IMG/VR virus record: IMGVR_UViG_3300028601_000031
Location: 8,228-72,227 of that record
Reading direction: 5' to 3' (one strand)
Origin: a virus
Taxonomy: Duplodnaviria > Caudoviricetes
DNA: 64,000 nt
Below the pieces are notes generated by a model that did no database searches, was not told where the DNA came from, and worked only from the letters and a program-made list of their open reading frames with translations. Shown here one piece after another: positions 7,952 through 60,530 of this stretch. How positions within the stretch are numbered: position 1 is the stretch's first letter; every line of letters starts with the position of its first letter. Position numbers and translations under genes: made by a program.

Positions 7952-7968
7952 ATAATTATATTTTAAGT

Positions 7969-8130
7969 TTATTTTTGTGATTCCCAAATTATTTGAATTT
8001 CTCTACCTGTTAGAGAATATAATACCCTATCATCGAAATATTGTTTACATAATTCAATTTTTACATCAGTGTCTAATTTATTCCACCATGCTAATGCAGA
8101 TATTCTTTTGTTTTGAAATTTAGTTAACAT
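7969..8130 (-). CDS. Small hypothetical protein (53 aa, not in the ORF track); paralog of 50632..50838
   Basis: MLTKFQNKRISALAWWNKL...YYSLTGREIQIIW; follows a TAnnTTTG promoter. Confidence 0.7.
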   Translation of the reverse strand: MLTKFQNKRISALAWWNKLDTDVKIELCKQYFDDRVLYSLTGREIQIIWESQK

Positions 8131-9620: not shown

Positions 9621-9881
9621 TTATTTAATATTAAAAATTGTTAAATTTTCAATAAATGTACCATCATCATTTATTCTGATAATTTCATTTATTTTTTGCA
9701 TATTAGTAGTGTACTTTGAATAGTTTTCTTCTAATGTTTTAACATCATCAAAGAAAACTGGATAATCATCATAATCCCATGTATCACAAACAGATATTAT
9801 ATATTTATGATTATTCTTTTTTGCTATTTTAATCCAATGATTAACATCTTGTCTTGTTGCTGTCATTTTTAAATATTTCAT
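9621..9881 (-). CDS. Hypothetical protein
   Basis: Operon ORF containing VCDTWDYDDYPVF. Confidence 0.65.
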   Translation of the reverse strand: MKYLKMTATRQDVNHWIKIAKKNNHKYIISVCDTWDYDDYPVFFDDVKTLEENYSKYTTNMQKINEIIRINDDGTFIENLTIFNIK

Positions 9882-10041
9882 TAAGTTTAAATCTTCTTTG
9901 TTTTAATTTACCAATATGATTTAATAAATCTCTATATTCTTCCTGTAATGATAATGAATATGATGCGGGATCACTCCATTTAACATTCATTATTTTCTTT
10001 TTTAAACGAACTCTTTGTTTATGTAAATCATTAAATATCAT
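9841..10041 (-). CDS. Hypothetical coiled-coil protein
   Basis: Operon ORF. Confidence 0.55.
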   Translation of the reverse strand: MIFNDLHKQRVRLKKKIMNVKWSDPASYSLSLQEEYRDLLNHIGKLKQRRFKLNEIFKNDSNKTRC

Positions 10042-10043
10042 AA

Positions 10044-10289
10044 TTATCTTTGAAATATTGAAATAATTATACTTATAGTCATAAATAATATAACAATCGA
10101 TATAAATGCTATAGGAATATACATAATTTTCAATAGAATATCATAACCATTTATGTTATATGATATTGTTAGTGTTATAATTAAAAATAATGATATTAAT
10201 AGTTTAATACCTATATTTTTTTTAATTGCGTTTATTATTTTATCCATATTATTTAATATATTTTTCAGAGTATTCAAATCGAATACCAT
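10044..10289 (-). CDS. Small membrane protein
   Basis: Two hydrophobic segments. Confidence 0.55.
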   Translation of the reverse strand: MVFDLNTLKNILNNMDKIINAIKKNIGIKLLISLFLIITLTISYNINGYDILLKIMYIPIAFISIVILFMTISIIISIFQR

Positions 10290-11537: not shown

Positions 11538-12425
11538 TTAATAAAGTTTATTGTTAATAATATAATTTAAAACATCTCTATTCATATATTTTAATAATTC
11601 ATCATAATTACTACCATCGTTATAAAAAATTTTTAATTTATCTCTTATAAGTGTTGATGATACTTCTATAATTTTATTTTCATCTTTTAGATAAATATGA
11701 GGATAATTTAAATACCAATTTACAAATTCGTCTCTTTTTATACCTGTTCTTGGAATAACAACAAATTGAATTAATCTTTCTAATTCTTCATAATTAACCC
11801 ATTTATCAAAAGTATTTGCATTATCCATTCCTATAATTAATGAAAAATTATGTTTTTCTGTTAATTCTTTTTCTTCTTTTAATCTTTTAACAAAATTATA
11901 AGTGGCACCTGATAATTGATTATCAATTTCATAAGGAAATACTTTGATTCTATCATCTACTTTAGATGCAATTTCACACATATTTAATCTGTGTTCAGAT
12001 GATACCATTTCTTTATTGTACATATGTTTAAACGCAGGCATTAACCATACTTCATCAAATTCTCTTGATGTGTTTAAAACAAATTGTGCAGTTTGTATAT
12101 GTCCTTGGGTAATAGGGTTAAACGCCCCGCCAAATATAGCAACTTTTAATTTTCTACCAAGTGATTTATATTGTAATGATCTAGAATTTATTTTTTCTAT
12201 ATTATTTTGTATCAATTCATCTATTGTCCATCCACTTTCATTACATAATTGAATTAATGATGATAATAAGTCACCTGTTTCTTCTTTCAAATTGTGAATA
12301 TCTGACCATTTCATTAACTCAAAAAATTCTTTTTGAATATCATTTAATCTTTCGGTTAAAGGTGTATATCCAAAATTTTGTTTATATGTATTATTAATTA
12401 ATTTTTGTAATTTATTGGTTTCCAT
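11538..12425 (-). CDS. nadD: MazG-like NTP pyrophosphatase fused to nicotinate-nucleotide adenylyltransferase
   Basis: N-terminal KEFFEL...LKEETGDLL...NIEKINSR (MazG-like); C-terminal AIFGGAFNPITQGH, IIGMDN, VSSTLIR (NadD). Confidence 0.88.
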   Translation of the reverse strand: METNKLQKLINNTYKQNFGYTPLTERLNDIQKEFFELMKWSDIHNLKEETGDLLSSLIQLCNESGWTIDELIQNNIEKINSRSLQYKSLGRKLKVAIFGGAFNPITQGHIQTAQFVLNTSREFDEVWLMPAFKHMYNKEMVSSEHRLNMCEIASKVDDRIKVFPYEIDNQLSGATYNFVKRLKEEKELTEKHNFSLIIGMDNANTFDKWVNYEELERLIQFVVIPRTGIKRDEFVNWYLNYPHIYLKDENKIIEVSSTLIRDKLKIFYNDGSNYDELLKYMNRDVLNYIINNKLY

Positions 12426-12813
12426 ATAATATTTTTTGAATTTTATTTTTTCTGTCTCTCATTTTAATATAGTCATTTATATCCATTTTACTCTGATTGT
12501 ATAATCGTTTATCATATTCTATTTTATTAAGTAAATTAGATATTTTTTCATTTATACTATCTAAATCATCTTCAAATTCAGTAACATTTATAATATTATT
12601 ATTAATATTAAATAATGTAAGTTTGTTATTTATTATTGATCTGAATACATGTATACACATTATATAAAAATCATGCATATTATTTTCTTCATTTTCAACT
12701 TTAAAATTAAATGCAATTTGATCTATATTATCATCAATAATACATCTATATACTTTTACTAAAAAATCGTTTTCTATTTTTTGAATCATATTATTTAGTT
12801 TTACATAACCCAA
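12412..12813 (-). CDS. Hypothetical protein with C-terminal RxxKIxxI tag
   Basis: Ends ...RKNKIQKILYGNQ. Confidence 0.65.
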   Translation of the reverse strand: MGYVKLNNMIQKIENDFLVKVYRCIIDDNIDQIAFNFKVENEENNMHDFYIMCIHVFRSIINNKLTLFNINNNIINVTEFEDDLDSINEKISNLLNKIEYDKRLYNQSKMDINDYIKMRDRKNKIQKILYGNQ

Positions 12814-14451: not shown

Positions 14452-14763
14452 TCATTCATTAATTAATTGATTTCTTTTATCTAAATTTTCTAATTTATCT
14501 ACATATTTTTTTAGAATATCACCATGACATGATAATGGATAACACCAACATCCTAATGTTTTATATTTTAATTCATGTAAAGAATTCATTAATTCTTTGT
14601 TATTTAACAAATATTCTTCATATTTTTGAATCGATTCTTGTCTTGTATCAACTTTAAATTCTGCTATTGTATCATTTTTATGTGAATATGGATTTCCCCA
14701 TTTAGAAGGTCTACCTATATAAATATCAAATTTTTCTTTTTTACAATGTACTACTTTACACAT
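14452..14763 (-). CDS. DUF4326-family protein
   Basis: VVHCKKEKFDIYIGRPSKWGNPY...LGCWCYPLSCHGDIL. Confidence 0.8.
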   Translation of the reverse strand: MCKVVHCKKEKFDIYIGRPSKWGNPYSHKNDTIAEFKVDTRQESIQKYEEYLLNNKELMNSLHELKYKTLGCWCYPLSCHGDILKKYVDKLENLDKRNQLINE

Positions 14764-15164
14764 TATATACCATCTTTTATTTTTTTAATTTTTTTAAATC
14801 TTAACTTCAATTTATTAACATATATTTTAGTTAAATTAAAAAATTCATCATCAGTTAACAAACCCTTTTTATTCTTATTGGATAAAATAAAATTTGTTAT
14901 TATATCAATATTTTTATCATTTTCAATATCTTTGACATTAACATGTAACATTATATCACCAGTATTTACAATAATACTACTTAATTTTGTTTTATTAAAT
15001 ATATCTAGATATGATTCATAATAAGAATCACCCTCATTAAAATAACAACCACCAATATCATTTTCTCTGAATTTAACTGGTTTACCAGACATTACCCAAT
15101 TAGCAAAAAATTCATATATAGACTCTTTTTGTTCTTGTGTTAATCTATTTGAATAATCTTTCAT
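14763..15164 (-). CDS. Hypothetical protein with C-terminal RxxKIxxI tag
   Basis: Ends ...LRFKKIKKIKDGI. Confidence 0.65.
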   Translation of the reverse strand: MKDYSNRLTQEQKESIYEFFANWVMSGKPVKFRENDIGGCYFNEGDSYYESYLDIFNKTKLSSIIVNTGDIMLHVNVKDIENDKNIDIITNFILSNKNKKGLLTDDEFFNLTKIYVNKLKLRFKKIKKIKDGI

Positions 15165-15165: not shown

Positions 15166-15393
15166 TTATTTATTTTTTAATAGTTTGATTATTTTATATT
15201 TTCTTTCAAAAATTTTAAATTTTTCATCTATACATACAGTATCAGATAATTTTGGGTAATCTTTGTAAAAATTATAATATTTTTTTAGAATATCAATATC
15301 AATATCAGTCATAATAGATATGCAGTTAAGTATATTTATACTGCCATCTTTTTTAATTGATTTTGATATTTTATCATTATACATTGATATCAT
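15166..15393 (-). CDS. Small protein with C-terminal RxxKIxxL tag
   Basis: Ends ...ERKYKIIKLLKNK. Confidence 0.6.
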   Translation of the reverse strand: MISMYNDKISKSIKKDGSINILNCISIMTDIDIDILKKYYNFYKDYPKLSDTVCIDEKFKIFERKYKIIKLLKNK

Positions 15394-15587
15394 TTTATTA
15401 TATTATTTAATTTTTCTTTTCTTAGTAATAATTTAATTCTATTTTCATCTCTTTTAATATAATTATAATGATGTAAATAAATACATGGATATTTACCGTA
15501 TATTTTTTTATATTTATCAATAATTAAATCATCTACATTATAAATTGATGAAATGATATCATAATGTAATTTTTTTGTAATACTCAT
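15390..15587 (-). CDS. Small protein with C-terminal RxxKLxxI tag
   Basis: Ends ...LRKEKLNNIIK. Confidence 0.6.
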   Translation of the reverse strand: MSITKKLHYDIISSIYNVDDLIIDKYKKIYGKYPCIYLHHYNYIKRDENRIKLLLRKEKLNNIIK

Positions 15588-18661: not shown

Positions 18662-21121
18662 TTATTTGTCATTCATATTTGTTATAGTATCACCTGATAT
18701 TGGTATTAACATTTTAGTTATATTAACTATCTCTAATTTATCTTCTGTTTGAGATTTCGCAATAATTATCTTATCTCCATTTACAACTTCTTTTGTTATA
18801 ATCTTTATAGATACTTCATCTTGTATATATTTTTGTATTGCTCTTTTTAATGGTCTTGCTCCCATATCTTCATCCCATCCTTTTTCAAATATAAAATCTT
18901 TAGCAGTTTCATCCAATTCAATATCGATATTATTATCAATTAATCTATTTCTAAAATTATCTAGTTCAATATCAATAATACTTTTAATATTATCTTTACT
19001 AAGACTATCGAAATGAACAACTTCATCAATTCTATTTAAGAATTCGGGTGAGAATTTTTTCTTTAATTCTTTTTCAACAATTGATTTACTCATAACTTGT
19101 TTATCACTATTAAATCCAATTCCAGCTCCTCTTAGTTTTGCTTCTTTTGAACCAATATTTGAAGTCATAATAATAACAGTATTTTTAAAATCAACAGTTC
19201 TTCCCTGACTATCTGTTAATATACCATCATCAAATACTTGTAATAGTACATTCCATACATCATTGTGTGCTTTTTCGATTTCATCTAGAAGGATAATAGA
19301 ATATGGCTTATTTTTAACTGCATCTGTCAATTGTCCACCATCTTCGTGACCAACGTATCCAGGAGGTGCTCCAATTAATCTAGATACAGAGTGTTTCTCC
19401 ATATATTCTGACATATCTATTCTAATATAATCTCTTTCACTATTAAATAATTGTTCAGCCAATTTTTTAACCATATGTGTTTTTCCTGTACCAGTAGGAC
19501 CTAGTAATAAAAATGTACCAATTGGTCTTTTTCCATCATTTAATCCAGCCTTGTTTCTTAATATAGCCATTGATATTTTATCAACTGCGTCGTCTTGTCC
19601 AATTATCTTTTTCTTCAATTCAAATGGTAAATTTACAAGTTTAGATGTATCATCATCTGTTATATTTTTAGATGGTATATTTGTCATTATAGAAATAACT
19701 TCATATACATCTTCTTTTCTAACCTTTTTTCTTTTTGATAATCTTTTATTTTTAAGATCATTTTTCATTATTTCAAGTTCAGATTCTATTGATCTTTGTT
19801 GTTTTAACAATTCTGCCGCTGATAAAAAATCTTGTTCTGATACTTTTTTTAATTTTTGTTTAGTTATTTCATCTAATTCATTTTCCTTATTGATTATATC
19901 AACAGGTGTTTCAATATTAATCCTAACAGATGCACCAGCTTCATCCATAACATCAATCGCTTTATCAGGAAATTGTCTATCAGATATATATCTATCAGAT
20001 AATTTTAAACATGCTATTATGGATTCATCTGTATATTCCACCATGTGGTGATTTTCATATCTATCTTTAAGATTTTTAAGAATTTCATATGTTTCATTAT
20101 ATGTTGGTTCATTTACTCTAATTTTTTGGAACCTTCTTTCTAATGCACCATCTTTTTCGATCTTTTTATATTCTTCATTTGTAGTAGAACCAATGCAACT
20201 AATTTCACCCCTTGATAATGCTGGTTTTAAAATATTTGCAGCATCTAATGATCCTGTTGATCCGCCCGCTCCAACTATTGTATGAATTTCATCAATATAG
20301 ATAATAATATCTGAGTTTTGTTTTAATTCATCGACAATTTTTTTCATTCTTTCTTCAAATTCTCCTCTGTATTTAGTACCAGCTACAACAGAACCCATTT
20401 CTAGTGATAATATTCTCTTATTATGTAAAATATCAGGTGTTTCTTTATTGATGATAGCTTGTGCTAAACCATCAACAATAGCAGTTTTCCCAACACCTGC
20501 ACTACCAATAAGAATAGGGTTATTTTTTTTCCTTCTAGAAAGGACTTGTGCAATTCTTTTAATTTCTTTTTCTCTACCGATGACAGGATCTAACTTATTT
20601 TGTTTTGCTAAATCTGTTAAATCTGTACTAAATTCATCTAGAATTGGTGTTTTTGTTTTTTTATAAGGTACATTAGTTCCAGTTGGATTATCATCTTTTT
20701 CCATATTAGAATTTTTATTAAATACTTTATTATAAATATTTTCAGCATCGGTATATGTAACATTTGGTATAACTTTAGCTCTTATAATAGATAATACAAG
20801 ATGCTCTGTTCTTACGATACTTGAATTAAACTTTTTTGCTTCTAATTGGGATTGCATCATTATATTTTGTGCTTCGGTACTTAATGATGCTAAATCGTCA
20901 TCTTTTTTTTCAATTGTATCAACAGATATTGGATCACTATTTAAAAATGTTTTCATTTTTTTCTTAGCATTATCAATATCAATAATATTTGATAGTATTT
21001 TATAACCATTACAATCATTTGTACTTATTATTCCAAATAATAAATGAGGAGGTTCAATTAAACCATTAGAGTACTCCTTTGCTTTCTTAATTACTTTTTT
21101 AAAATTTTCTGAATATTCCAT
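18662..21121 (-). CDS. clpC: ATP-dependent Clp protease ATP-binding subunit (ClpC type)
   Basis: Clp N-domain, GSAGVGKT and GPTGTGKT Walker A motifs, GTKYRGEFE pore loop, UVR-like middle domain, IGF loop (GAGIGF). Confidence 0.93.
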   Translation of the reverse strand: MEYSENFKKVIKKAKEYSNGLIEPPHLLFGIISTNDCNGYKILSNIIDIDNAKKKMKTFLNSDPISVDTIEKKDDDLASLSTEAQNIMMQSQLEAKKFNSSIVRTEHLVLSIIRAKVIPNVTYTDAENIYNKVFNKNSNMEKDDNPTGTNVPYKKTKTPILDEFSTDLTDLAKQNKLDPVIGREKEIKRIAQVLSRRKKNNPILIGSAGVGKTAIVDGLAQAIINKETPDILHNKRILSLEMGSVVAGTKYRGEFEERMKKIVDELKQNSDIIIYIDEIHTIVGAGGSTGSLDAANILKPALSRGEISCIGSTTNEEYKKIEKDGALERRFQKIRVNEPTYNETYEILKNLKDRYENHHMVEYTDESIIACLKLSDRYISDRQFPDKAIDVMDEAGASVRINIETPVDIINKENELDEITKQKLKKVSEQDFLSAAELLKQQRSIESELEIMKNDLKNKRLSKRKKVRKEDVYEVISIMTNIPSKNITDDDTSKLVNLPFELKKKIIGQDDAVDKISMAILRNKAGLNDGKRPIGTFLLLGPTGTGKTHMVKKLAEQLFNSERDYIRIDMSEYMEKHSVSRLIGAPPGYVGHEDGGQLTDAVKNKPYSIILLDEIEKAHNDVWNVLLQVFDDGILTDSQGRTVDFKNTVIIMTSNIGSKEAKLRGAGIGFNSDKQVMSKSIVEKELKKKFSPEFLNRIDEVVHFDSLSKDNIKSIIDIELDNFRNRLIDNNIDIELDETAKDFIFEKGWDEDMGARPLKRAIQKYIQDEVSIKIITKEVVNGDKIIIAKSQTEDKLEIVNITKMLIPISGDTITNMNDK

Positions 21122-21634: not shown

Positions 21635-22066
21635 CTATAGTTTTTGAATTAAAATTCCATCTTTATCAAACATTATCAAATCAAATCCTAATACTTTTAT
21701 ATTCTTATCTTTATAAAATTCTGATAGTGAACCAACATTTTTTCTAACTTCTGAAAAATTATGAGATCTTTCTGACATAATTTTAATTTGTTCATCGGTT
21801 GGTTCACTTTCAAAAAATATAATAAAATTATCAGAATTTGAATTATCCAACGCAACTGGTCTATAACATCCATGATCATCAGGTAAATCTTTAATATTAC
21901 TAAATAAATTTGATATATTCATGTCAACAAATTCATCACCTACTCCACATTCTCCTAATTGACCAGTCATATATGCACACATTTCTCTCTCAAAATTACC
22001 TGCATAAGAATCAGTTTTAACTTTAAATCCCCAATAAATTTCTTTCATATTATTAATCAATTTCAA
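21635..22066 (-). CDS. Hypothetical phage protein
   Basis: TDSYAGNFEREMCAYMTG..GECGVG; operon ORF. Confidence 0.7.
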   Translation of the reverse strand: MKLINNMKEIYWGFKVKTDSYAGNFEREMCAYMTGQLGECGVGDEFVDMNISNLFSNIKDLPDDHGCYRPVALDNSNSDNFIIFFESEPTDEQIKIMSERSHNFSEVRKNVGSLSEFYKDKNIKVLGFDLIMFDKDGILIQKL

Positions 22067-22400
22067 CGGTTGCTTCTAAATTTCTACTATTTAATCCTTT
22101 TTTTAATTTCATCATTTCATCAAATGATCCAGTTTTAACAACTGATTTACCCTTGTTGTGTGCTTCCATTGTTACTCTAATACATTCTTCACTTGATAAT
22201 TTACAAATATCATATAACGCTAACATTACATCCATAATATCATTGACATGATCATTCCATAGTATTAGTCTATAAACATCAGATTTCGAATTTTTAATAC
22301 CTAATTCACTTAATAAATCGGTTATGCTATCAGTATCAGATGATACACTACTTTGTATATCATTTAACATTTGCTCATATTTGTCTCTACTATACATCAT
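22053..22400 (-). CDS. clpS: Clp protease adaptor ClpS
   Basis: YRLILWNDHVN....V...L......ME.HNKGKSVV...GL..RNL.AT. Confidence 0.85.
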   Translation of the reverse strand: MMYSRDKYEQMLNDIQSSVSSDTDSITDLLSELGIKNSKSDVYRLILWNDHVNDIMDVMLALYDICKLSSEECIRVTMEAHNKGKSVVKTGSFDEMMKLKKGLNSRNLEATVEID

Positions 22401-22441: not shown

Positions 22442-23029
22442 TTAAAAAGCTTTTTTAAATTTTTTATTTAAATATTCAGATTTTCTTTTTAATCTAAAAT
22501 TATTAATGTATATAAAATACTTTTTATCATTAGTAAAAACATCATTGCAATCTTTACACATTCCCATATTTATATCCCTATTGACATTATTTTTAGATTT
22601 TCCGCAACATGAACAAGTATTATTAGTTTCAATAATATTATTAATAATATCAGTATTATTACTTTTCTTCCTTATTAATCTATTAATCGAATATTTAACA
22701 TCAATATCATTTAAAAAATTTTTATTTATACAAACTATTTCTTTTTTAACAACTTCTCCATATTTATAAAAATAAACATATTTTTCCGTTAAACAATTGA
22801 AAAAATCACTACTTAAATGACACCATATTGGTATATCTATTTTTAGAATAGGTCTATGATATCCATATTCATAAGTGTATGATCTTAATTTAGATATAGT
22901 ATTACTATTTTTTAAACAATATGATTTTTTATTAATAGCGTCAATCTTTAAATATGGACATAAATTACAACTGTTTAATTTTAAACAGGTTGGTTTATCA
23001 TCAACAAATGTAGATATATATTTATCCAT
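22442..23029 (-). CDS. Cys-rich zinc-binding protein, paralog of 23034..23666
   Basis: CNLCP, IPIWC, CSCCG, GMCKDC, INNFRLKR. Confidence 0.75.
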   Translation of the reverse strand: MDKYISTFVDDKPTCLKLNSCNLCPYLKIDAINKKSYCLKNSNTISKLRSYTYEYGYHRPILKIDIPIWCHLSSDFFNCLTEKYVYFYKYGEVVKKEIVCINKNFLNDIDVKYSINRLIRKKSNNTDIINNIIETNNTCSCCGKSKNNVNRDINMGMCKDCNDVFTNDKKYFIYINNFRLKRKSEYLNKKFKKAF

Positions 23030-23033: not shown

Positions 23034-23666
23034 TTAAATTTTAATATCTTTCAAAACTTTTATTGTAGATTTTATTTTTTTATTTCTTTTTAATCTAAAG
23101 TTATTAAGATATGATAATCTTTTATTATAATCATTATTTTGGGATAATTCCCAGCATGTATCACACATACCAAAATTAACTGACCTATTAACACTTGTAT
23201 CTTCTTCTCCACATAAAGAACACACTAATCCTTGATTATATTTTTTAATATCTGTAGTAATTGTATTATTATCTGTTCTTATATCATTATAACTATGTAT
23301 AAATCCTTTCATATCATAATTATAATATAATGTGTCTAAGTTCAAAACATCAAAATCCATAGTATTTATGGATAAACTATTTTCATATACTTTAAATGTA
23401 TAATAAAATTTATGAATTAAATCAGATAAATTATTTGGCAATTCACACCATTTTGGGATATTAATAAATTCATATAACGAATATTTATCAATATCATAAA
23501 TGTATATGTTATTTTTTATAATATTATTTCCATCTTCGGAACTAAAATATCTACATTTACAATTTTTATTATTGAAATCTAAAGATAAAAGTGGGCATTT
23601 ATTACAACTACTTAAGTTAACTATAACTTTCTTGTTTTTGTAATACGTTCTTATGTATTTTTGCAT
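23034..23666 (-). CDS. Cys-rich zinc-binding protein, paralog of 22442..23029
   Basis: CNKCP, IPKWC, CSLCG, GMCDTC, LNNFRLKR; TAnnTTTG at 23681-23688. Confidence 0.75.
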   Translation of the reverse strand: MQKYIRTYYKNKKVIVNLSSCNKCPLLSLDFNNKNCKCRYFSSEDGNNIIKNNIYIYDIDKYSLYEFINIPKWCELPNNLSDLIHKFYYTFKVYENSLSINTMDFDVLNLDTLYYNYDMKGFIHSYNDIRTDNNTITTDIKKYNQGLVCSLCGEEDTSVNRSVNFGMCDTCWELSQNNDYNKRLSYLNNFRLKRNKKIKSTIKVLKDIKI

Positions 23667-24309: not shown

Positions 24310-24345
24310 AAAAATAAATCCCTTATAATTAAGGGATTTATTTTT
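24310..24345 (-). terminator. Intrinsic terminator
   Basis: aaaaataaatccctta-taat-taagggatttattttt. Confidence 0.8.
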
Positions 24346-24532
24346 AACTAAAAAGTAATCCTGGTTTTTTATATTCTTCTTGTTGATATATTTCATTTAA
24401 TTGTTCAGGTTTCAGATCATTTTTATCCCAACCTTTTTCATTGATATATTTATCAACAAATTTCTCTCTAAGATCTTTTAAATCTTTTTCAGATAGACCA
24501 GTTTCTTTAATAATTTGTTCTTTCATAATCAT
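24344..24532 (-). CDS. Small hypothetical protein
   Basis: ORF bounded by a TTTATATATA motif and a terminator. Confidence 0.65.
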   Translation of the reverse strand: MIMKEQIIKETGLSEKDLKDLREKFVDKYINEKGWDKNDLKPEQLNEIYQQEEYKKPGLLFS

Positions 24533-24559: not shown

Positions 24560-24955
24560 TTAAAAGTTATAATTATTTAATTTTATTTCTTTTAAAATCA
24601 ATAAATTACAATTTTTATTTTTAATTTTATTTATTTTTAATTTTCTTATATATAAATCATCATATATTGGTACCAATCTATTATCATCCCATCTCATATT
24701 ACCATCTAAATATATTTTTATTTTATTCGCTAATATTCCTATAAGACCTATTTTATCATGATTAAATGATAATTTACTATGTGATGGTATATTATCCATT
24801 AAATTTGATATTATATTACCATTAGTTTTAATTTTCGTAAAATTGTAAATATTAGAAAATTTTATAATATCCATAATAATTTGTCTATTTATAGTTGATA
24901 TATTATGTAATAATGATATGGTATCATTAATATCTATATTAATATCTTCTATCAT
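24560..24955 (-). CDS. Small protein resembling a degenerate major-capsid-protein fragment, with RxxKIxxI tag
   Basis: IKTNGNIISNLMD...IGILANKIKIYLDGNMRWDDNRL, then IRKLKINKI. Confidence 0.5.
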   Translation of the reverse strand: MIEDINIDINDTISLLHNISTINRQIIMDIIKFSNIYNFTKIKTNGNIISNLMDNIPSHSKLSFNHDKIGLIGILANKIKIYLDGNMRWDDNRLVPIYDDLYIRKLKINKIKNKNCNLLILKEIKLNNYNF

Positions 24956-25647
24956 TGTTTATAATAATTATCATAATCTATTTTAGTAATAAAATTATCA
25001 AATGTTGTTCTAACAATTTTACCATTATCATCTTTTAAATAAATTAAATATTTAGTATTAAAATCATTGTCAATTTTAACATTAATATCAATTATACTAT
25101 ACTCTTTATCTAATGTAAAATTTTTTTGACATTTTATACAAACCAATTTGTGATTTTTTAATTTTAATAGTATCCCTTTAATTTGTTGAGATAATGATTC
25201 TAATTTCTTATTAATATACTTACTTTTATTTATGGGTTTTGGTTTAGGTTCTTCACCATCAACTTTATCACCTTTTATTTCATTACAAGGTTTACATAAA
25301 AGTTGATAATTTTCTAATTCATTTTTGCCCCCTTTACTTTTTGGATAAATATGATCAATTGTATACATATAAGGTTCACCGTTATCATCACTATATAAAT
25401 CTAAATGCCATCTACCCGCATTATCTTTTGCTGAAGCAAAATATTCTGGTATTTTATTACAATACTGACATTTTAATCCATCCCTATCAATTAAACTTTT
25501 TATTATATTAGCTCTTTTTAAAGAGTCGCTCATATCTTTAACATGAAATATTAATTCATCTGGTATTTTATTTTCTTTTAGTAAATCAAAGACCTCTTTT
25601 ATTGTATATTTTTTATAAATCTTATAACCATGATTGTTTCTTGGCAT
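24952..25647 (-). CDS. HNH endonuclease with C-terminal SH3-like extension
   Basis: CQYC...TIDHIYPKSKGGKNELENYQLLCKPCNEIKG. Confidence 0.85.
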   Translation of the reverse strand: MPRNNHGYKIYKKYTIKEVFDLLKENKIPDELIFHVKDMSDSLKRANIIKSLIDRDGLKCQYCNKIPEYFASAKDNAGRWHLDLYSDDNGEPYMYTIDHIYPKSKGGKNELENYQLLCKPCNEIKGDKVDGEEPKPKPINKSKYINKKLESLSQQIKGILLKLKNHKLVCIKCQKNFTLDKEYSIIDINVKIDNDFNTKYLIYLKDDNGKIVRTTFDNFITKIDYDNYYKQ

Positions 25648-25701
25648 ATCTTATATTAAATTAATTTTAATATCTTATATTTTATGATATTAGATAAGTT
25701 T

Positions 25702-25732
25702 AAAAATAAGGACAAAATATGTCCTTATTTTT
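25702..25732 (-). terminator. Intrinsic terminator
   Basis: aaaaataaggaca-aaata-tgtccttattttt. Confidence 0.8.
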
Positions 25733-26555
25733 AATAATTTTTATTATAGGTATAGATATAATCAACAGGATTAACTGGTCTATTATTTAATAAAATTTCA
25801 TAATGTAAATGATTATTAGTTGACATACCAGTACTCCCAACATAACCTATTTTTTCGTTTAATTTAACATGTTGACCTTTTTTAACAGATATTGAACTTA
25901 AATGCGCATAAACAGTCTTATATCCATATTTATGTTGTATTACAATTCTATTTCCATATCCTGTTTTATCTTTATAAATATTTTCTACAACTCCATCCGA
26001 TGTAGAATACACTTCAGTTCTTTTAGTTGCTGAAATATCAATACCTTCATGAAATGACCATTTTTTAGTTATTGGGTGTCGTCTATAACCAAATCCACTT
26101 GTTATTCTAATTAAATCACTAGATGATATAGGTGTTAGTGTAGGTAAATGATATATTGAATCAACCAATACATTAATTTTACGATTTAATGAATCATATA
26201 TAATATTTTGATTATTTATTTCATTATATAAATCTGTTATAGTATAATTACTATAATCTGAATAGTTCACATCTAAAGAAAGACTTAATGATTTTCTTAT
26301 TAAATCTTGTTCTCTTTCTTTTATTGTTATTAATTCATTTAAAACTATATTTTTTAATGAATCTTTCTCTTTATATACTAATTCTGTTTCTTTTTTAAAA
26401 TTTTCTATAATTTTAGATTCGTCTGGATGTATTGATACACTGGATATAGATAAAAAGATTACAAAAATAAATGCAAAATTAAATAATAAAAATTTTCTTA
26501 CTAATTTTGATTTTTCGTTTTTATACACTTCATTTTTAATTAATTCTGTATTCAT
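25731..26555 (-). CDS. M23 family peptidoglycan peptidase, membrane-anchored
   Basis: TM segment, coiled coil, ITSGFGYRRHP..HEGID, YAHL, STGMSTNNHLHYE. Confidence 0.92.
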   Translation of the reverse strand: MNTELIKNEVYKNEKSKLVRKFLLFNFAFIFVIFLSISSVSIHPDESKIIENFKKETELVYKEKDSLKNIVLNELITIKEREQDLIRKSLSLSLDVNYSDYSNYTITDLYNEINNQNIIYDSLNRKINVLVDSIYHLPTLTPISSSDLIRITSGFGYRRHPITKKWSFHEGIDISATKRTEVYSTSDGVVENIYKDKTGYGNRIVIQHKYGYKTVYAHLSSISVKKGQHVKLNEKIGYVGSTGMSTNNHLHYEILLNNRPVNPVDYIYTYNKNY

Positions 26556-30848: not shown

Positions 30849-31496
30849 ATGAAATATTTAAAAACATATAGGAAACAATATAACTTTTGTAATGAATCCA
30901 TAAAACATTTTTTAAAGGGTAAAAGTAAGAATGAAATAATGAAAAAAACATCTAATTTAAAACCAATAGAAAAAATGAATTATGCAATTAAATATGGTAT
31001 AGACTGGTTAGCACAAGAAGCTATTGATGATGGAATTGACATTAATATGATATATATTGATTTAAGAACTGTTGTAATGAACAACGAAATTAGTATTTTA
31101 AAAATTTTAATTAATAATAAAATATCAATAAATGAACTCAATAGTGCAATTCTATATGCAATAGAACATAATAAATTAGATATATTAAAATTATTAGTTA
31201 ATTATGGTTGTGATATAAAAACTGATGATAATTTTATTGAATATTATAATTTTTATTTAACATATTTACAATTTGCTGTAATAAAATTAAAATCTGATGA
31301 TAATATGGTTAAATATTTAATTGATAATGGTGCTTATAATTATATTCCAAAAGAAATACTAGTAGATATATTAAATATGAATAAATTTGATGTAATTAAA
31401 GTATTAATAGATAATATTAAAGGTATGAAGGAAGCATATCAATATTTATACGATGAACATAAAAAAATAATTGAAAAATTAGAAAAAGTATTATAA
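30849..31496 (+). CDS. Ankyrin-repeat protein with MKYLKTY..NES leader
   Basis: AILYAIEHNKLDILKLLVNYGCDI, MVKYLIDNGA. Confidence 0.8.
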   Translation: MKYLKTYRKQYNFCNESIKHFLKGKSKNEIMKKTSNLKPIEKMNYAIKYGIDWLAQEAIDDGIDINMIYIDLRTVVMNNEISILKILINNKISINELNSAILYAIEHNKLDILKLLVNYGCDIKTDDNFIEYYNFYLTYLQFAVIKLKSDDNMVKYLIDNGAYNYIPKEILVDILNMNKFDVIKVLIDNIKGMKEAYQYLYDEHKKIIEKLEKVL

Positions 31497-31499
31497 TTT

Positions 31500-33977: not shown

Positions 33978-34190
33978 ATGGATAAAAATACAGAAACACC
34001 TAAATTCTTTAGTGAAAACGTATGGTTAAAAAGATTAGGATTGGTAATTTTAATTTTAGGTATGTATCCTAATATTGTTGCTGAATATCCTGTATATGTA
34101 GATTATATTATTAAATTTGTAGTTGGTGCAATTATTTTATCATATGTTTTAAAAATGGTAGTTGGATTTTTTAAATCTCTTCTAACTTAG
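33978..34190 (+). CDS. Small two-TM membrane protein
   Basis: Two hydrophobic helices; TATATTTG promoter at 33950-33957. Confidence 0.7.
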   Translation: MDKNTETPKFFSENVWLKRLGLVILILGMYPNIVAEYPVYVDYIIKFVVGAIILSYVLKMVVGFFKSLLT

Positions 34191-34590
34191 ACATTCTATT
34201 TAATAATTTTTCAATTTTTTCTTTTCTCATCAATAAATCATAATCGATACTTTCAGCCCAATCATATATTATATTCATGTCTATATCATTATATGATGAA
34301 TGTGAATTAAAATCAATTGTCATTTCTTCAATAATAGAGTTATAAAAAACCATACATGTATTATCATATATTATTAACTTTGATGGTTTTTTAGTATTAC
34401 TAATTTTAGTATTATTGGACATAGTTAAATATATTTCATATAATTTATTTATAACATAATGATTATTATCTACTTTTAATCGTATATTATTTGTAAATAT
34501 TTGATAATTATTATTTTGTGTTAATGTCATATTTCCCTTTGAAATATTAAATTTTACATCTAATCCATCATATTCATATATACAAACCAT
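34171..34590 (-). CDS. Hypothetical protein (tail-tube-like C-terminal strands) with RxxKIxxL tag
   Basis: ...IEEMTIDF....NDIDMNIIYDWAE, then MRKEKIEKLL. Confidence 0.55.
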   Translation of the reverse strand: MVCIYEYDGLDVKFNISKGNMTLTQNNNYQIFTNNIRLKVDNNHYVINKLYEIYLTMSNNTKISNTKKPSKLIIYDNTCMVFYNSIIEEMTIDFNSHSSYNDIDMNIIYDWAESIDYDLLMRKEKIEKLLNRMSKLEEI

Positions 34591-37375: not shown

Positions 37376-37789
37376 TTATTTAATTATTTTTTCAATTTTA
37401 TTAAGTTTTAAAATTCTTTGTACTTCTTTGGGTTTTAAACATTGTTCTCTTAATTTTATTGTTTCTTTTAGAACATTATCATATGACCAGTTGTGCATAT
37501 TATCACCACTATGACAAGTATCAAAACCAATTATCCATAAATCTTCTTCATCATCATAATCAGAAAATGTTAATCCACCATGTACACTAGTATGTTTATA
37601 TAAGTCATCATAATCTATTTTATAAAAAGGGTGCCAAACAGGAATACCAACATACCCATTTCCCCATCCACCTATCATTTCTACATGTACTCCAAAATCT
37701 TTTTGTTTAGAATATTCATGTAAATGATTTCTAACTAAATATATAGGTAGTTGGTTATAATGTGGTAATTTATTTATTTTAAAGTTCAT
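37376..37789 (-). CDS. Conserved phage protein with C-terminal RxxKLxxI tag
   Basis: GWGNGYV..P..HP...VHGGLTF...IGFDTCH.GD; ends [14 protein letters not shown]. Confidence 0.7.
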
Positions 37790-44008: not shown

Positions 44009-44009
44009 T

Positions 44010-45861: not shown

Positions 45862-46050
45862 TTAATAACAATATGAATCGTCATTTTCACCAGAAGGATA
45901 ATATAAACTTTTACCTAAACTATTTATTTCATCTCTTTCTTTTTCCAATTCACGTCTATTGCTTTCAATGATTCTCCTATTAACTTTAGATTCCCATCTT
46001 TTTGATTTTGCTTTATTAATATTTTTTCTTACTTCATTTCTCCAACTCAT
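45862..46050 (-). CDS. Small basic protein
   Basis: Operon ORF. Confidence 0.55.
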   Translation of the reverse strand: MSWRNEVRKNINKAKSKRWESKVNRRIIESNRRELEKERDEINSLGKSLYYPSGENDDSYCY

Positions 46051-46477
46051 AATTAATTATTTTTAATATTTTATCTTTTCTTTTATATTTTTCTAAAAAT
46101 TTCATAGTATTATCATACATATTAATTTTACTATTTAATCTTTTTTGTTGTCTTAATAATTCTTTTATTGTATTATTTTTTGTTTCAAATAACTTATCAT
46201 AAAATCTATTTATCAATTCTATTTCTTTTTTCTTTAAATATTCTTCATTGTTTATTTTTCTTGTTATAAATGTAGAGTATGTTAAATCTGTTTTATTATA
46301 ACTATAATTATTATCAAAATAAAATTTATCCCAACTTTCACCATCACGAAAACCAACTCTAAAATATTCTCTTGTTAATATAATTTTATCACTGTATAAA
46401 TTCAATGAAATTCTATATGATATAGGTTCATCTTTAAAACTATCTAAGTCTGATTTTTCTTTTATAATTAATTCCAT
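46034..46477 (-). CDS. Hypothetical protein with RxxKIxxI tag
   Basis: Ends KRKDKILKIINYELEK. Confidence 0.65.
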   Translation of the reverse strand: MELIIKEKSDLDSFKDEPISYRISLNLYSDKIILTREYFRVGFRDGESWDKFYFDNNYSYNKTDLTYSTFITRKINNEEYLKKKEIELINRFYDKLFETKNNTIKELLRQQKRLNSKINMYDNTMKFLEKYKRKDKILKIINYELEK

Positions 46478-46781
46478 TTGAAAGTTTTTTAATTTTTGAT
46501 TGTCTTAATACCATATTAAAAAAATCTATAGATATTTTACCTGAAAAAAATTCTTGAAAATTATAATGTTCCCATAAGTTACCCTCAATTATTTTAAATT
46601 CATCATTTACAATTTTTGCAAATTGTGGCATATTTAAATCAAATTTATCAAGATGTTGTGTCATCTTTTCATTAGACGATGTTGAAAATGTGTTATATTT
46701 AACATATTCTTCATCACATTTTAATAGAAAATTAAGTATTAAACATGCACCTATTTGAATATCTTCATCATTTAATTTCAT
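46440..46781 (-). CDS. Hypothetical protein with RxxKIxxL tag
   Basis: LRQSKIKKL near the C-terminus. Confidence 0.65.
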   Translation of the reverse strand: MKLNDEDIQIGACLILNFLLKCDEEYVKYNTFSTSSNEKMTQHLDKFDLNMPQFAKIVNDEFKIIEGNLWEHYNFQEFFSGKISIDFFNMVLRQSKIKKLSNGINYKRKIRLR

Positions 46782-51623: not shown

Positions 51624-52016
51624 TTATCTTAACATTTTTGGTAAATTATATTTTTCAACTAAATCATATAAATCCCCATATGATACATATATAAATAAAA
51701 AATAATCTACTGTATCCATTAATCTACATCCAATTTCTCCATATTTCCAGCTCTCTTTATATCCACCTTGGGTAAATCTATCAATGACAACATTATGAGT
51801 ATTTAAAGATAATTTTTGTTCAATGAATTCTTCTGCTGTAAATTTATCAGTTCTCTTTCTTTGTATACTAGTTAATTCATCAACATGATGATCATATGAC
51901 AATGACAATGCGTCTCTATATAATTGTTTAAGTGTTTTTTCATCTTTAATAACACCAACATCAAAAAACCCATTCCAATATGATGTTTGTTCATTAAAAT
52001 TATTAATATTTTTCAT
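51624..52016 (-). CDS. Hypothetical protein with MKNINNFNE leader
   Basis: Operon ORF with leader motif. Confidence 0.65.
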   Translation of the reverse strand: MKNINNFNEQTSYWNGFFDVGVIKDEKTLKQLYRDALSLSYDHHVDELTSIQRKRTDKFTAEEFIEQKLSLNTHNVVIDRFTQGGYKESWKYGEIGCRLMDTVDYFLFIYVSYGDLYDLVEKYNLPKMLR

Positions 52017-52255
52017 TTTTTCTTAAATTTAGATTTTGTTTTTAATTCCTTTATTTTTTCATCTCTATCTCTATTTTTAAAATATTCTTTTTCATCAATA
52101 AATAATCGACAAATTTTTTTATCATTAACAATTTCATCATAATATGGACTATTTGGATGTTCACATTTCATACATTGATCACCAAACCACTTATTTAATA
52201 ATAAAGTAGATTCTGTATAATTAGAATATAAACAATCCAAACATGACTTTTCCAT
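52013..52255 (-). CDS. Small Cys-rich protein with RxxKIxxL tag
   Basis: CLDC..CMKC..C; DRDEKIKEL. Confidence 0.65.
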   Translation of the reverse strand: MEKSCLDCLYSNYTESTLLLNKWFGDQCMKCEHPNSPYYDEIVNDKKICRLFIDEKEYFKNRDRDEKIKELKTKSKFKKK

Positions 52256-58003: not shown

Positions 58004-58564
58004 TTACAAATTTTTATGTTTAATATTTGTTATGCTAATGTATTTAGCAGGTACAAAATCAGTTAACCAAACTTTATTTTCAGATAAATAAAATTTATAA
58101 CCATCTTCGTACATTTTCTTTGATTCTATTCTTAGAATTACTGGTTTTAAAGTCTTTGCATGTCTTTGACCAACATGAAATGCTGTCAATTTATTGTCAG
58201 ATAAATGAACAAATTTTCTTGACATTTTATACAATCCATTTTGCATAATACTATCAATAACTGTTGGTGTTGTACCATGAAATAAAAACATTGGAGGTTC
58301 TAATTCTGCAAATTTAATAGTAACAAAATCAATTGAATGTCCCTGATTTGCTCTTATTTTCAATTCACCATCAAAATACTTATATGAGTATCTTTGTTTA
58401 TCATCCTTAAATACAAGCATATCCAATGTATCTTTATCTGTTTTGATTAAAGATAATAATTCTTTAATACTAACCCAACCGTCTTGATCCATTTTCATTC
58501 CTCTTGGATCATGTCGAAGCAAGTAAGCTAGCTTCTTTGATATTTTCATTAAATCCTTTTCCAT
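58004..58564 (-). CDS. kptA: RNA 2'-phosphotransferase (Tpt1/KptA)
   Basis: SKKLAYLLRH, DDKQRY, IRANQGHS, LFHGT, MSRKFVHLS, VWLTDFVP. Confidence 0.93.
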   Translation of the reverse strand: MEKDLMKISKKLAYLLRHDPRGMKMDQDGWVSIKELLSLIKTDKDTLDMLVFKDDKQRYSYKYFDGELKIRANQGHSIDFVTIKFAELEPPMFLFHGTTPTVIDSIMQNGLYKMSRKFVHLSDNKLTAFHVGQRHAKTLKPVILRIESKKMYEDGYKFYLSENKVWLTDFVPAKYISITNIKHKNL

Positions 58565-58973
58565 ATATTAATTTTTTAATTTTATGTATTCTTAACACAT
58601 CTTTAAATTCCATTTTTAGTATTCCATTACCGTCATATCTTGATATTGTTAAGTCTTTTATTTTATGAATATTCTTAAAAATATTATTTAAAAAATAATT
58701 ATACTCTTCGATTGTTTCTATTGCTTGTAATTCATATTTATCTAAATTATATGACATTCTATAACAAGCATATGGTTCCATAATTTCTTCAACTTTCCAG
58801 TCATCTTCTGTTAAATCTTTAATTAACTTATCTCTATTTATAATATAAATTGATTTAGAATACCCGCAACTATTACAAAAAGTAAATTCTTCACCTGTTT
58901 TATAATTAAAATCAGATATACAATCACCTGTCTGACATCTTGGACACTCAATATAATCAATTATAGTTCCCAT
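58509..58973 (-). CDS. Zinc-ribbon protein with RxxKIxxL tag
   Basis: CPRC..CNSCGY; LRIHKIKKL. Confidence 0.7.
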   Translation of the reverse strand: MGTIIDYIECPRCQTGDCISDFNYKTGEEFTFCNSCGYSKSIYIINRDKLIKDLTEDDWKVEEIMEPYACYRMSYNLDKYELQAIETIEEYNYFLNNIFKNIHKIKDLTISRYDGNGILKMEFKDVLRIHKIKKLIYGKGFNENIKEASLLAST

Positions 58974-59443
58974 ACATTCTTAATTTTATTAATTTTTAAA
59001 AATCTTTCTTCCTTTCTTATATCATCTAAACTAAAATGATTATTATTTGGTATACTGCAATACCTAATTTTTTCAATTGTAAAGATACCTTTTTTTACTA
59101 TAATAATCAAATCTGATTCATAAAATGTTGATGCAATAGTTCCTATATCTGTTATGTTTATAAAGTTTTTTAATTTTCTGATATCTATAACAGATTCAAA
59201 TCTTTTAATGCTACTATAAGGATTAGAAATTCTAAAATTATCTCTTATAAGTATAACATTATCATTATTTGACAATTCAATAATTTCTTTTATTGTATAT
59301 TTATCATAATAATCATTATTAAACTCCATAACATTATTAAAATACTTAGATATAATTGATGCTAATAAATTACAATTACGTCTATCAAATGTAGTTCTAT
59401 ATAAAAATGTAATTCTATTATGTTTTATTATTTTTTCTAACAT
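58961..59443 (-). CDS. Hypothetical protein (possible degenerate DnaB-like C-terminal fragment) with RxxKIxxI tag
   Basis: ESDLIIIV...TIEKIRY; ERFLKINKI. Confidence 0.55.
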   Translation of the reverse strand: MLEKIIKHNRITFLYRTTFDRRNCNLLASIISKYFNNVMEFNNDYYDKYTIKEIIELSNNDNVILIRDNFRISNPYSSIKRFESVIDIRKLKNFINITDIGTIASTFYESDLIIIVKKGIFTIEKIRYCSIPNNNHFSLDDIRKEERFLKINKIKNVWEL

Positions 59444-59745
59444 ATATAAGATAAATGATCAATAATTATAATATCTGGTTTTATATTTAATTTCATCACT
59501 ATATTTGGGTATAATGATGAAAAATCATAATTAGACTTAAATTTAGTAAATAATCTAAACCCAATTAAATGTTTATCACATTTATTTAAAAGTTTATAAA
59601 GTTTTAATTTCCTTATAAATATAAATAATTCATTTCTATTAGAAGTATCAACAATATGATCAATATTTATATCATTCATATGGGTTTTAATATCGCCATT
59701 AATTATAAAATAATGATTACCAATATATTCTATATTAAATATCAT
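59437..59745 (-). CDS. Small chimeric protein: RxxKLxxL tag, PolB motif A-like and Walker-B-like peptides
   Basis: IRKLKLYKL...YDFSSLYPNIVMKLNI-KPDIIIIDHL. Confidence 0.6.
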   Translation of the reverse strand: MIFNIEYIGNHYFIINGDIKTHMNDINIDHIVDTSNRNELFIFIRKLKLYKLLNKCDKHLIGFRLFTKFKSNYDFSSLYPNIVMKLNIKPDIIIIDHLSYIC

Positions 59746-59939
59746 TTAGATAAGATTTTATGTAAATTATTACAACCAATTTTAATTAAATAAAAAGATA
59801 ATATAGATACACTAATAAAAGTTATAAAATTAATAATTGGTTTAAATGGAACAGTATGTAAATATAACAAAGAAAATAGCATAATAATTGAAAAAATTAT
59901 TAGTACTATGTTAGTAAATATTAATATAAATCTTTTCAT
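59742..59939 (-). CDS. Small two-TM membrane protein
   Basis: Hydrophobic ORF. Confidence 0.6.
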   Translation of the reverse strand: MKRFILIFTNIVLIIFSIIMLFSLLYLHTVPFKPIINFITFISVSILSFYLIKIGCNNLHKILSK

Positions 59940-60331
59940 TTTTGTATTTTTTTAATTATTCTATTAAGTTTATTAAGTCTTTTAAATTTTAAATATTTTG
60001 GATCTTCGTACAATTCGTACCAATATTGGCCATCTCCGAACCTTAATATATTTTCTATATGTACTTTAATTTCATCTATAACAAGATCAATTAATTGAAA
60101 ATTATCCATAAATGTATAACACCATATAGAGTAATCATCTTCTTTTATATTCCAATCCTCATAATATTCGTAATAAGGTTCTTTTCCTTGTTTTATTAAT
60201 TCTTCATCTATTTTTTTACCAATTTCTATATGATTATAAATCATTTGTTTTTGTTCATCGGTTATTTTATGTAAAGGAATAATGAAGCTACTTGAACTAC
60301 TATTACTAACAAATCCTTTTCTTATTTTCAT
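59936..60331 (-). CDS. RxGFVSNSSSS-leader protein with RxxKLxxI tag
   Basis: MKIRKGFVSNSSSSSFII; KRLNKLNRII. Confidence 0.75.
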   Translation of the reverse strand: MKIRKGFVSNSSSSSFIIPLHKITDEQKQMIYNHIEIGKKIDEELIKQGKEPYYEYYEDWNIKEDDYSIWCYTFMDNFQLIDLVIDEIKVHIENILRFGDGQYWYELYEDPKYLKFKRLNKLNRIIKKIQK

Positions 60332-60530
60332 ATAATTTTTTAATTTTTAATATTCTATATTCTGTTAATAAAATAAATCTATTTGATAAAATACCTCCAT
60401 TATTAAGTAATTCTTTTATTAGTACTGCTTGATTATTAATTACATATTCAATTGTGTATTTTTCTCCTAATTTTAATGATGTACGTGGTGATGTACTAAT
60501 ACAAACCACAACATCCCCCTTTTTAAACAT
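60306..60530 (-). CDS. Small SH3-like protein with RxxKIxxL tag
   Basis: FKKGDVVVCI...LKLGEKYTI...RF; YRILKIKKL. Confidence 0.65.
   Translation of the reverse strand: MFKKGDVVVCISTSPRTSLKLGEKYTIEYVINNQAVLIKELLNNGGILSNRFILLTEYRILKIKKLYENKKRIC

Follow-up and report, generated by a model that had tools for sequence, protein, structure and literature searches.

The closest described counterpart of a capsid domain that stands alone is found in the Family 4 'A-domain encapsulins' (PF08967/ENCP4, 2PK8). As described by Andreas and Giessen (2021, PMC8346489), these are proteins of about 100 amino acids from archaea and a few Bacteroidetes, with a role that is described as speculative. They contain only the A-domain of the HK97 fold, and their genes lie directly downstream of an enzyme gene. 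We analysed a 64,000-nucleotide stretch of viral DNA (bases 8228-72227 of the 72,227-base IMG/VR record IMGVR_UViG_3300028601_000031, referred to here as the window), and within it a minus-strand gene for a 131-residue protein, which we call the mini-protein. We observed that the mini-protein is likewise a stand-alone, A-domain-type protein encoded directly behind an enzyme gene, in this case that of an HNH endonuclease. The Family 4 proteins come from hyperthermophilic archaea and a few Bacteroidetes, are not derived from Gp23 and share no tag, whereas the mini-protein is from a phage, belongs to the T4 lineage and carries a short helical peptide, RKLKINKI (the tag), that recurs on other proteins of the window.

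The second point of comparison is the pair of T4 capsid proteins gp23 and gp24 (PF07068; 7VRT, 5VF3, 6UZC, 1YUE), with which the mini-protein shares a homologous stretch of about 90 residues that takes in the loop NMRWDDNR, and on which its model superposes. It has about a quarter of their length and is without the N-arm, the E-loop, the spine helix and the insertion domain; it also differs from them by a 7-column loop deletion and an 11-column helix insertion, by its place in a non-structural gene unit, and by falling below the Pfam threshold. The T4 capsid-targeting sequence and ClpX-type recognition tails are known examples of a portable peptide at a protein end, by which unrelated proteins are docked to one receptor. 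The encapsulin cargo-loading peptides and the C-terminal coat-binding domain of P22 scaffolding are likewise cases where one short terminal peptide docks unrelated proteins. The tag differs from all of these in sequence, and in the mini-protein its helix is internal, 28 residues from the end. It is also known that immune receptors of bacteria detect conserved proteins of phages, the major capsid protein among them. Full-text literature searches turned up no description of A-domain-only capsid copies encoded by phages, nor of this tag.

By sequence comparison, we showed that the mini-protein is homologous to a stretch of about 90 residues near the C-terminus of the Gp23-family (T4-type) major capsid proteins. 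Direct annotation gave little: Pfam returned only DUF2079 (expectation value, E, 0.023) and PHROGs nothing, tblastn and megablast against phage records found no match, and the ESM Atlas held no usable one. In a metagenome locus (L004), an open reading frame (ORF) of 319 amino acids (aa) lies between a GroES gene and a tail-sheath gene, and scores 26.7 bits on the Pfam Gp23 family (PF07068), for which the gathering cut-off is 24.4 bits. BLASTP aligned residues 5-95 of the mini-protein with residues 155-246 of this 319-aa protein at 37% identity (E 7e-11). The three database relatives of the 319-aa protein are all PF07068-positive, one of them being a canonical form of 548 aa, and when a 14-member family of mini-proteins was compared with these three using hhalign, the probability was 98.4% (E 4.9e-15) over 82 columns (15-97 against 184-273). 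PDB sequence searches gave nothing with the mini-family profile and nothing useful with the 319-aa protein.

We also searched complete capsid genes with a hidden Markov model (HMM) of the mini-protein family. In each of two huge phages that are 96% complete, it matched the canonical capsid ORF (554 aa and 582 aa), with per-genome E-values of 7.9e-11 and 6.1e-5; these two ORFs score 116 and 101 bits on PF07068. It further matched 17 of 17 Gp23-like loci that had been collected with a capsid alignment and not with the mini-protein, the E-values here being those of a small database. In these loci, HMM positions of about 12-96 fell on residues of about 390-530 in proteins of 533-599 aa, always some 70-140 residues before the C-terminus. 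Base composition does not explain the match, since several of the matched phages have a guanine-plus-cytosine (GC) content of 37-42%, as compared with 19-27% for the DNA of the window. In the joint alignment, the blocks common to mini-proteins and capsid proteins are T-N-G, L-Q-D and Y-x-D-x-N-M-x-W-D-D-N-R, and the loop NMRWDDNR is the stretch most conserved between the two. The same alignment (A4) places the deleted loop and shows that the inserted columns are the tag. The preliminary description of this DNA had pointed to a gp23-type segment in the mini-protein, and the BLASTP, hhalign and HMM matches bore this resemblance out.

Shorter Gp23-like ORFs occur in other huge phages (313 and 209 aa in a 429-kb genome, G001; P0016 and P0017, 319-339 aa). 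They hold the same conserved segment and lie in non-structural or mixed contexts. These paralogues are 2-3 times longer than the mini-protein and are without the tag helix, and the tag motif is not enriched in G001. In G001, the two ORFs (L021, 2404-3345 and 3346-3975) are found in a genome that also has the canonical 554-aa capsid gene. Neither of the two ORFs passes Pfam; they are flanked by a piece of an intein-bearing DNA polymerase on one side and by a RecA-like gene on the other.

The fold was predicted with AlphaFold using the joint alignment, which gave a predicted local distance difference test score (pLDDT) of 80.8 and a predicted template modelling score of 0.74. The order of elements in the model is a strand, a long helix, a strand, a helix, three strands, the helix of residues 100-111 and a last strand. 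When the Foldseek candidates were compared with the model using VIA-align, T4 gp23 (7vrt_aa, residues 315-521) gave a middling Z of 9.3 over 120 aligned residues (root-mean-square deviation, rmsd, 4.4), gp24 (1yue, residues 223-422) a Z of 8.1, and residues 241-383 of HK97 gp5 a Z of 6.0. We also scanned 48,161 chains independently of Foldseek, and the 50 chains listed were, by title, capsids of phages, gene transfer agents or phage-inducible chromosomal islands, encapsulins, or the 94-aa 2pk8. The 2pk8 match had a Z of 5.9 and an rmsd of 3.4, with 86 of its 94 residues aligned to a model that was built with capsid segments in its alignment.

These comparisons support the assignment of the matched region, as modelled, to the part of the HK97 fold that follows the spine helix, namely the axial A-domain and adjoining strands; the domain borders are those that we take the HK97 fold to have. 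The A-domain assignment is also supported by 2pk8, since this protein is described as A-domain-only and matches the model. The parts listed above, together with most of the P-domain, are missing, so the complete HK97 fold is absent, and the mini-protein would be unable to lock into a shell lattice because it lacks the N-arm, E-loop, spine helix/P-domain and insertion domain. Taken together, the sequence and structure comparisons showed the product of the mini gene to be a free-standing copy of the A-domain region, and of no other part, of a Gp23-type HK97-fold capsid protein. The preliminary description would have been contradicted by a lack of profile or structural similarity to HK97-fold capsid proteins; such similarity was present both by hhalign and by structure comparison.

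Among predicted viral structures, three matches were found at E<=1e-3, including a T4-like capsid protein and an uncharacterised marine-phage protein of 130 aa. Two uncharacterised BFVD proteins, A0A8D9CCE8 (130 aa) and A0A345MM72 (250 aa), resembled the model at E<=4e-4, and weaker resemblances were seen for A0A8D9FQX2 (126 aa), A0A8D9C9S9 (131 aa) and A0A345MM67 (328 aa). Since small phage proteins of this database resemble the model, stand-alone A-domain-like proteins may be more widespread in phages than the one described here.

The mini gene lies exactly where the preliminary description had placed it, and all the peptides quoted there are present in its translation. We estimated its conservation in several ways. 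Six homologues (124-127 aa, 69-73% identity) came from a word-indexed search. When 1.84 billion cluster representatives were searched exhaustively with the HMM, nine clusters (at 50% identity) had E<=1e-3, and all of these were of 117-144 aa; one family member is on a contig of 616,614 bases. The ratio of nonsynonymous to synonymous substitution rates (dN/dS, Nei-Gojobori script) between the window gene and two orthologues was 0.39-0.40, similar to the 0.33 of the HNH gene. Judging from this constraint and from the spread of homologues, we showed that the mini gene represents a real gene family under selection. In a maximum-likelihood tree, all 14 mini-proteins fell on one side of a branch (support 93/86, and in 90% of bootstrap trees), which is consistent with a single origin of the sequences. 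A search for longer proteins that hold the mini domain found none, which is weak evidence, and searches of viral contigs with A1, A2 and P0014 for the gene context of distant family members were unsuccessful.

It could be argued that the mini gene is debris, a piece of a capsid paralogue carried along by a mobile HNH gene and without a function of its own. The gene does directly adjoin the HNH gene, and dN/dS was 0.97 between the two closest orthologues. However, over the longer distance it fell to the lower values given above, the core and tag regions are 89% identical in close homologues, intact ORFs of similar length are found in nine clusters that share at most 50% identity, and near-identical pieces of the gene are present in contigs of four other public runs. 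We therefore find this explanation hardly credible. The variation that was seen is concentrated in the N-terminal part, and one public contig again had its 26 differences over 24827-25009. Contigs in public assemblies are often interrupted at the A-rich tag-coding stretch (24602-24649): several start at 24650, and repeats are skipped there. This may be why family members are often found on very short contigs.

We next considered the surroundings of the gene. The record is rated 18% complete by CheckV, from which we infer a whole phage genome of about 400 kb. The mini gene appears to be the middle gene of a three-gene unit that starts with the HNH gene, and the order HNH, mini, about-60-aa gene is kept in two metagenome loci (L002 and L003). 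The further neighbours are genes for an M23 peptidase, a sigma-70-type factor, a response-regulator receiver domain and ClpS (Pfam), and the gene is outside any head-morphogenesis module. A Pfam scan of 86 other window ORFs found no virion or structural protein among them. The phage's own Gp23 gene was not seen either, as there was no PF07068 match anywhere in the 72-kb record. A promoter scan was uninformative in the AT-rich DNA of the window (48 sites, where 43.7 were expected).

The neighbourhood raises the possibility that the mini-protein is a partner of the HNH nuclease, oligomerising in the manner of the Family 4 encapsulins and binding, stabilising or regulating the enzyme encoded upstream. 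The 4-nucleotide (nt) overlap of HNH stop and mini start is present in all three related genomes seen (the window, L002 and L003), and the 2pk8 match counts in its favour. Among the Family 4 proteins, one is described as forming a complex with the enzyme whose gene precedes its own (PMC8346489). Against it, PF08967 matched none of the 14 family members and nothing in the record at E<=10, so there is no sequence relation to Family 4, and the presence of the same tag on 14 other proteins would be left unexplained. The prediction of a complex between HNH nuclease and mini-protein scored 0.01, which speaks neither way. We regard a partnership of this kind as very unlikely.

The tag is the second feature that sets the mini-protein apart from capsid proteins. 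It comes after the capsid-like part, as the preliminary description had it, but it is not terminal. In a first search with RKLKINKI, three other ORFs proved to have R-x-L-K-type copies close to their ends, and the motif was then generalised by eye, after seeing the data, to R-x-x-K-[ILM]-x-[KNRE]-[ILM]. The count covered 106 ORFs, none shorter than 50 aa, picked by a greedy, length-based choice that allowed overlaps of no more than 60 nt; they are not curated gene calls. We observed 17 matches. Of these, 16 fell within 30 residues of the C-terminus, and the 15 ORFs that carry them (about 14% of the set) are 65-160 aa long. When whole proteins were shuffled, there were 0.81 matches overall and 0.12 in tails; when the shuffle was confined to those 30 terminal residues, the tail figure was 0.30 (at most 4 in 500 shuffles). 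The reversed pattern gave 4 in total and none in tails. The claim that the tag is shared by other proteins was thereby upheld, the 16 C-terminal matches standing against 0.12-0.30 expected. Outside the window, in the remaining 8 kb of the record, a 271-aa ORF ends in one further copy.

As a control we used G001, which has 24% GC and 647 ORFs and shares several genes with this phage. It had 5 matches where 4.9 were expected, and 1 in tails where 0.65-0.81 were expected. Positions outside the regular expression were also patterned, with position -5 hydrophobic in 11 of the 16 cases and position -4 basic in 10, and these flanks fit an amphipathic helix of about 18 residues, as read from the sequences. 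Even though the motif was defined after the fact, it is supported by the lack of enrichment in the control and by the patterned flanks. Among the 14 members of the mini family, 13 keep the motif, 27-32 residues from the end.

Paralogy of the tag carriers was rejected, there being no BLASTP match among them at E<=0.01. A DNA-level repeat or mobile element as the origin of the tag was rejected as well: a degenerate DNA pattern recovers no more than the four closest copies, and conservation is lacking at the x positions. What we observed is a portable motif, one short peptide carried by non-paralogous proteins near a fixed end and far above chance. We also considered whether every tagged protein is a fragment of a core protein; only the mini-protein and, weakly, the ORF at 59437-59745 match larger proteins in G001 or the family library. 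For the latter ORF the match is to a DNA polymerase (phrog_262, E 1.5e-4; PF00136, E 0.008, below the cut-off), which makes it a possible second case of a core phage protein present as a tagged fragment.

An alternative for the tag alone is that it is no peptide signal and arises as a by-product of an A/U-rich RNA signal that starts translation of the next gene. The positions of the motif lend this some weight, as 13 of the 16 C-terminal motifs start 16-50 nt before the start codon of the next gene, and in overlapping gene pairs the motif tracks the next start and not its own stop. The reading frame, in turn, argues for a peptide: translation in all frames gave the 17 in-frame matches, nearly all of them at protein ends, as against 7 in the two other sense frames, one in antisense and one between genes. 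In three cases, among them the mini gene itself (114 nt) and a gene at the end of an operon, no start codon follows nearby. The tail shuffles that keep composition, the unenriched phage of the same composition, and the retention of the motif in the diverged mini-proteins also stand against an RNA origin, which we think quite improbable.

If the tag is a peptide signal, its receptor might be inside the head. The mini-protein could then be an accessory of head assembly or a packaged cargo, with the tag as a scaffold-like or cargo-loading helix that binds the procapsid interior, so that the mini-protein is loaded into the head or regulates it. Binding to HK97-fold shells is described for the C-terminal helices of scaffolding proteins and for the C-terminal targeting peptides of encapsulin cargo (10.1101/2022.12.13.520362; PMC7925596), and many small proteins here have the tag, a basic amphipathic helix. 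The tagged genes, however, sit among non-structural genes, and the motif resembles no known capsid-targeting sequence that could be tested. This role appears unlikely to us. Other receptor candidates encoded in the window are a ClpC-like ATPase, ClpS, DnaJ and the ankyrin proteins, all of which are guesses.

Several further sequences in the window and elsewhere touch on the tag. The phage has a Clp set on the minus strand, comprising a ClpC/ClpB-like double-AAA+ ATPase with Clp_N, ClpS, ClpP and a full DnaJ (18662-21121, 22053-22400, 36153-36815 and 37779-38843), the members of which are candidate readers of the tag. Tandem cysteine-rich paralogues of 195 and 210 aa (22442-23029 and 23034-23666, minus strand) each end in N-N-F-R-L-K-R and a basic tail, an ending that resembles the tag without matching it; the pair is conserved in L002 (2055-3253) and L003 (7933-9134). 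In two contigs of giant-virus metagenome-assembled genomes (L029, 4983-5360, and L030, 4860-5237), a 125-aa ORF has L-R-T-Y-K-I-N-K-I-K-G, 10 of 11 residues being identical to the tag region of one mini-protein (P0008). This match is probably due to chance, since the search was driven by that very pattern.

Table 1. Features of the window that bear on the mini-protein and its tag. Positions are those of the window; -, minus strand; distances are from the motif to the protein end.
Feature	Coordinates	Strand	Basis or remark
Mini capsid-like protein gene, 131 aa	24560..24955	-	ATG start, ORF list; homologues 117-144 aa; dN/dS 0.39-0.40 against two orthologues
Fast-changing N-terminal part, residues 1-32	24860..24955	-	61% mean identity among close homologues, 89% for the rest
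Segment homologous to the A-domain region of Gp23-family capsid proteins, residues 5-97	24665..24943	-	BLASTP, hhalign, HMM, joint alignment A4
Predicted helix, residues 100-111, holding the tag R104-I111 RKLKINKI (24623-24646)	24623..24658	-	AlphaFold; insertion in A4
Conserved C-terminal piece, residues 112-131, last predicted strand 123-127	24563..24622	-	Nearly invariant in close homologues
HNH endonuclease gene	24952..25647	-	Pfam HNH_5, E 6e-13; its stop overlaps the mini gene start by 4 nt
62-aa gene 3' of the mini gene, apparently last of an apparent three-gene unit	24344..24532	-	ORF list; conserved in L002, L003
Terminator-like inverted repeat, 10+10 nt, 4-nt loop, then minus-strand T run	24316..24339	.	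By eye; not listed by the terminator scan
Palindromic hairpin between M23 peptidase gene and HNH gene	25700..25734	.	Terminator-like site in the scan
Tag ORF, 66 aa, motif 18 from end	9841..10041	-	Motif scan
Tag ORF, 133 aa, motif 13 from end	12412..12813	-	Motif scan
Tag ORF, 133 aa, motif 12 from end	14763..15164	-	Motif scan
Tag ORF, 75 aa, motif 12 from end	15166..15393	-	Motif scan
Tag ORF, 65 aa, motif 10 from end	15390..15587	-	Motif scan
Tag ORF, 139 aa, two motifs 18 and 8 from end; last gene of strand block, no downstream start	34171..34590	-	
Tag ORF, 137 aa, motif 13 from end; tag outside phrog_2164 match (residues 16-117)	37376..37789	-	
Tag ORF, 147 aa, motif 15 from end	46034..46477	-	Motif scan
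Tag ORF, 113 aa, motif 21 from end	46440..46781	-	Motif scan
Tag ORF, 80 aa, motif 17 from end	52013..52255	-	Motif scan
Tag ORF, 154 aa, motif 27 from end	58509..58973	-	Motif scan
Tag ORF, 160 aa, motif 14 from end, RFLKINKI	58961..59443	-	Motif scan
102-aa ORF, internal motif RKLKLYKL at residue 45; weak family-B DNA polymerase motif A match	59437..59745	-	
Tag ORF, 131 aa, motif 14 from end	59936..60331	-	Motif scan
Tag ORF, 74 aa, motif 16 from end	60306..60530	-	Motif scan

Four other groups of genes were seen in the window. Genes related to nicotinamide adenine dinucleotide (NAD) lie on the minus strand at 6785-7987, 10249-10869, 11538-12425, 55262-56209 and 61132-61533. Their products are nicotinate phosphoribosyltransferase, an isochorismatase-family (nicotinamidase-like) protein, a cytidylyltransferase-like protein with MazG, phosphoribosyl pyrophosphate synthetase and a NUDIX hydrolase, a set that is presumably a phage module for NAD salvage or reconstitution. 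A TnpB/Cas12f-like, transposon-associated nuclease gene (OrfB_IS605, TNB domain) is at 47149-48351 (minus strand) and has three relatives in G001. Three consecutive genes for ankyrin-repeat proteins (30849-33938) are on the plus strand, opposite to almost all other genes. An RNA-repair pair, RNA ligase and a Tpt1/KptA RNA 2'-phosphotransferase, is encoded on the minus strand at 43016-44047 and 58004-58564.

What could the mini-protein do? We put at about 45% the reading that it is a soluble capsid look-alike, delivered by its tag to a shared receptor, with a role in conflict being more likely than one in routine head building. The mini-protein would mimic a capsid protein that has not been assembled. 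The face of the A-domain that it retains could bind whatever that face usually meets, be it the next subunit of the capsid, a factor of head assembly or a sensor of the host. The helix of the tag, which is basic and amphipathic and replaces a short turn of the capsid proteins, would dock the mini-protein to one receptor common to all the tagged proteins. The outcome may be to blunt host sensors of capsid protein, or to disturb the head assembly of a rival phage. We favour conflict over head building because the gene is in a non-structural unit behind an HNH nuclease and because the N-terminal third changes fast.

A number of points weigh against the reading of a tag-delivered capsid look-alike. 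Our analysis yielded no partner supported by experiment or by interaction prediction. The Pfam Gp23 family matches none of the 14 family members directly, and gave no match to the mini-protein at E<=1. When AlphaFold was run with only seven close homologues the model was useless (pLDDT 38). Capsid segments were part of the alignment that gave the better model, so the fold match and the sequence homology are not independent lines of evidence. Foldseek found no match in the PDB at E<=1e-3, with T4 capsid chains leading the list at a best E of 0.045, and the VIA-align Z values of 8-9 fall in the range that the tool calls middling. That the mini-protein is a copy of the phage's own capsid protein is something that we infer from relatives, since the capsid gene of this phage is not in the record. 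The dN/dS of the two closest orthologues could reflect relaxed constraint and not an arms race. Finally, the tag is internal in the mini-protein and may perhaps be simply a structural helix.

The preliminary description had proposed that the tagged capsid fragment acts as a decoy or bait for defence sensors or interferes with competing phages. Its structural half held, in that the mini-protein is a cut-down relative of the Gp23 family with a peptide common to other proteins. The functional half is compatible with the non-structural gene context and the fast-changing residues 1-32, and nothing in our analysis shows it. In its most specific form, the mini-protein would be a decoy for capsid-sensing immunity that occupies CapRel- or Avs-type sensors without activating them, or soaks them up before capsid accumulates. 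The conserved surface elements of the capsid protein are kept, the gene is outside the structural module and the N-terminal part is variable, all of which would suit a decoy. So would the statement, in a 2026 preprint (10.64898/2026.01.04.697583), that Avs proteins are predicted or shown to bind major capsid proteins via conserved core folds. On the other side, a look-alike at the level of the fold could equally trigger the sensor, and we found no capsid decoys described in the literature searched. As a specific function, this strikes us as unlikely.

A wider scheme can also be drawn, which we hold to be speculative and rather doubtful. The helix R-x-x-K-hydrophobic-x-K-hydrophobic, on about one-seventh of the proteins, would be the address tag of a phage system. 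Its carriers would include cut-down core proteins (the capsid A-domain and possibly a motif-A fragment of DNA polymerase), its single reader might be, for example, ClpC/ClpP/ClpS or the procapsid interior, and the tagged proteins would be timed, disposable mimics by which host sensors of conserved phage proteins are blinded.

For the biology of these phages, a copy of the capsid axial domain that is under selection and does not assemble is a natural candidate for mimicry, either in conflict with the host or in the control of head assembly, and the mini-protein is small enough for a direct test. It would be a minimal and naturally soluble A-domain of the T4-lineage HK97 fold, going by the model, and a counterpart of the archaeal A-domain encapsulins. 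Since the two have no sequence relation, truncation to the A-domain would have arisen separately in each. That about 14% of the ORFs carry the helix suggests a receptor common to them, and if this is true, it would organise much of the 'dark' small proteome of huge phages.

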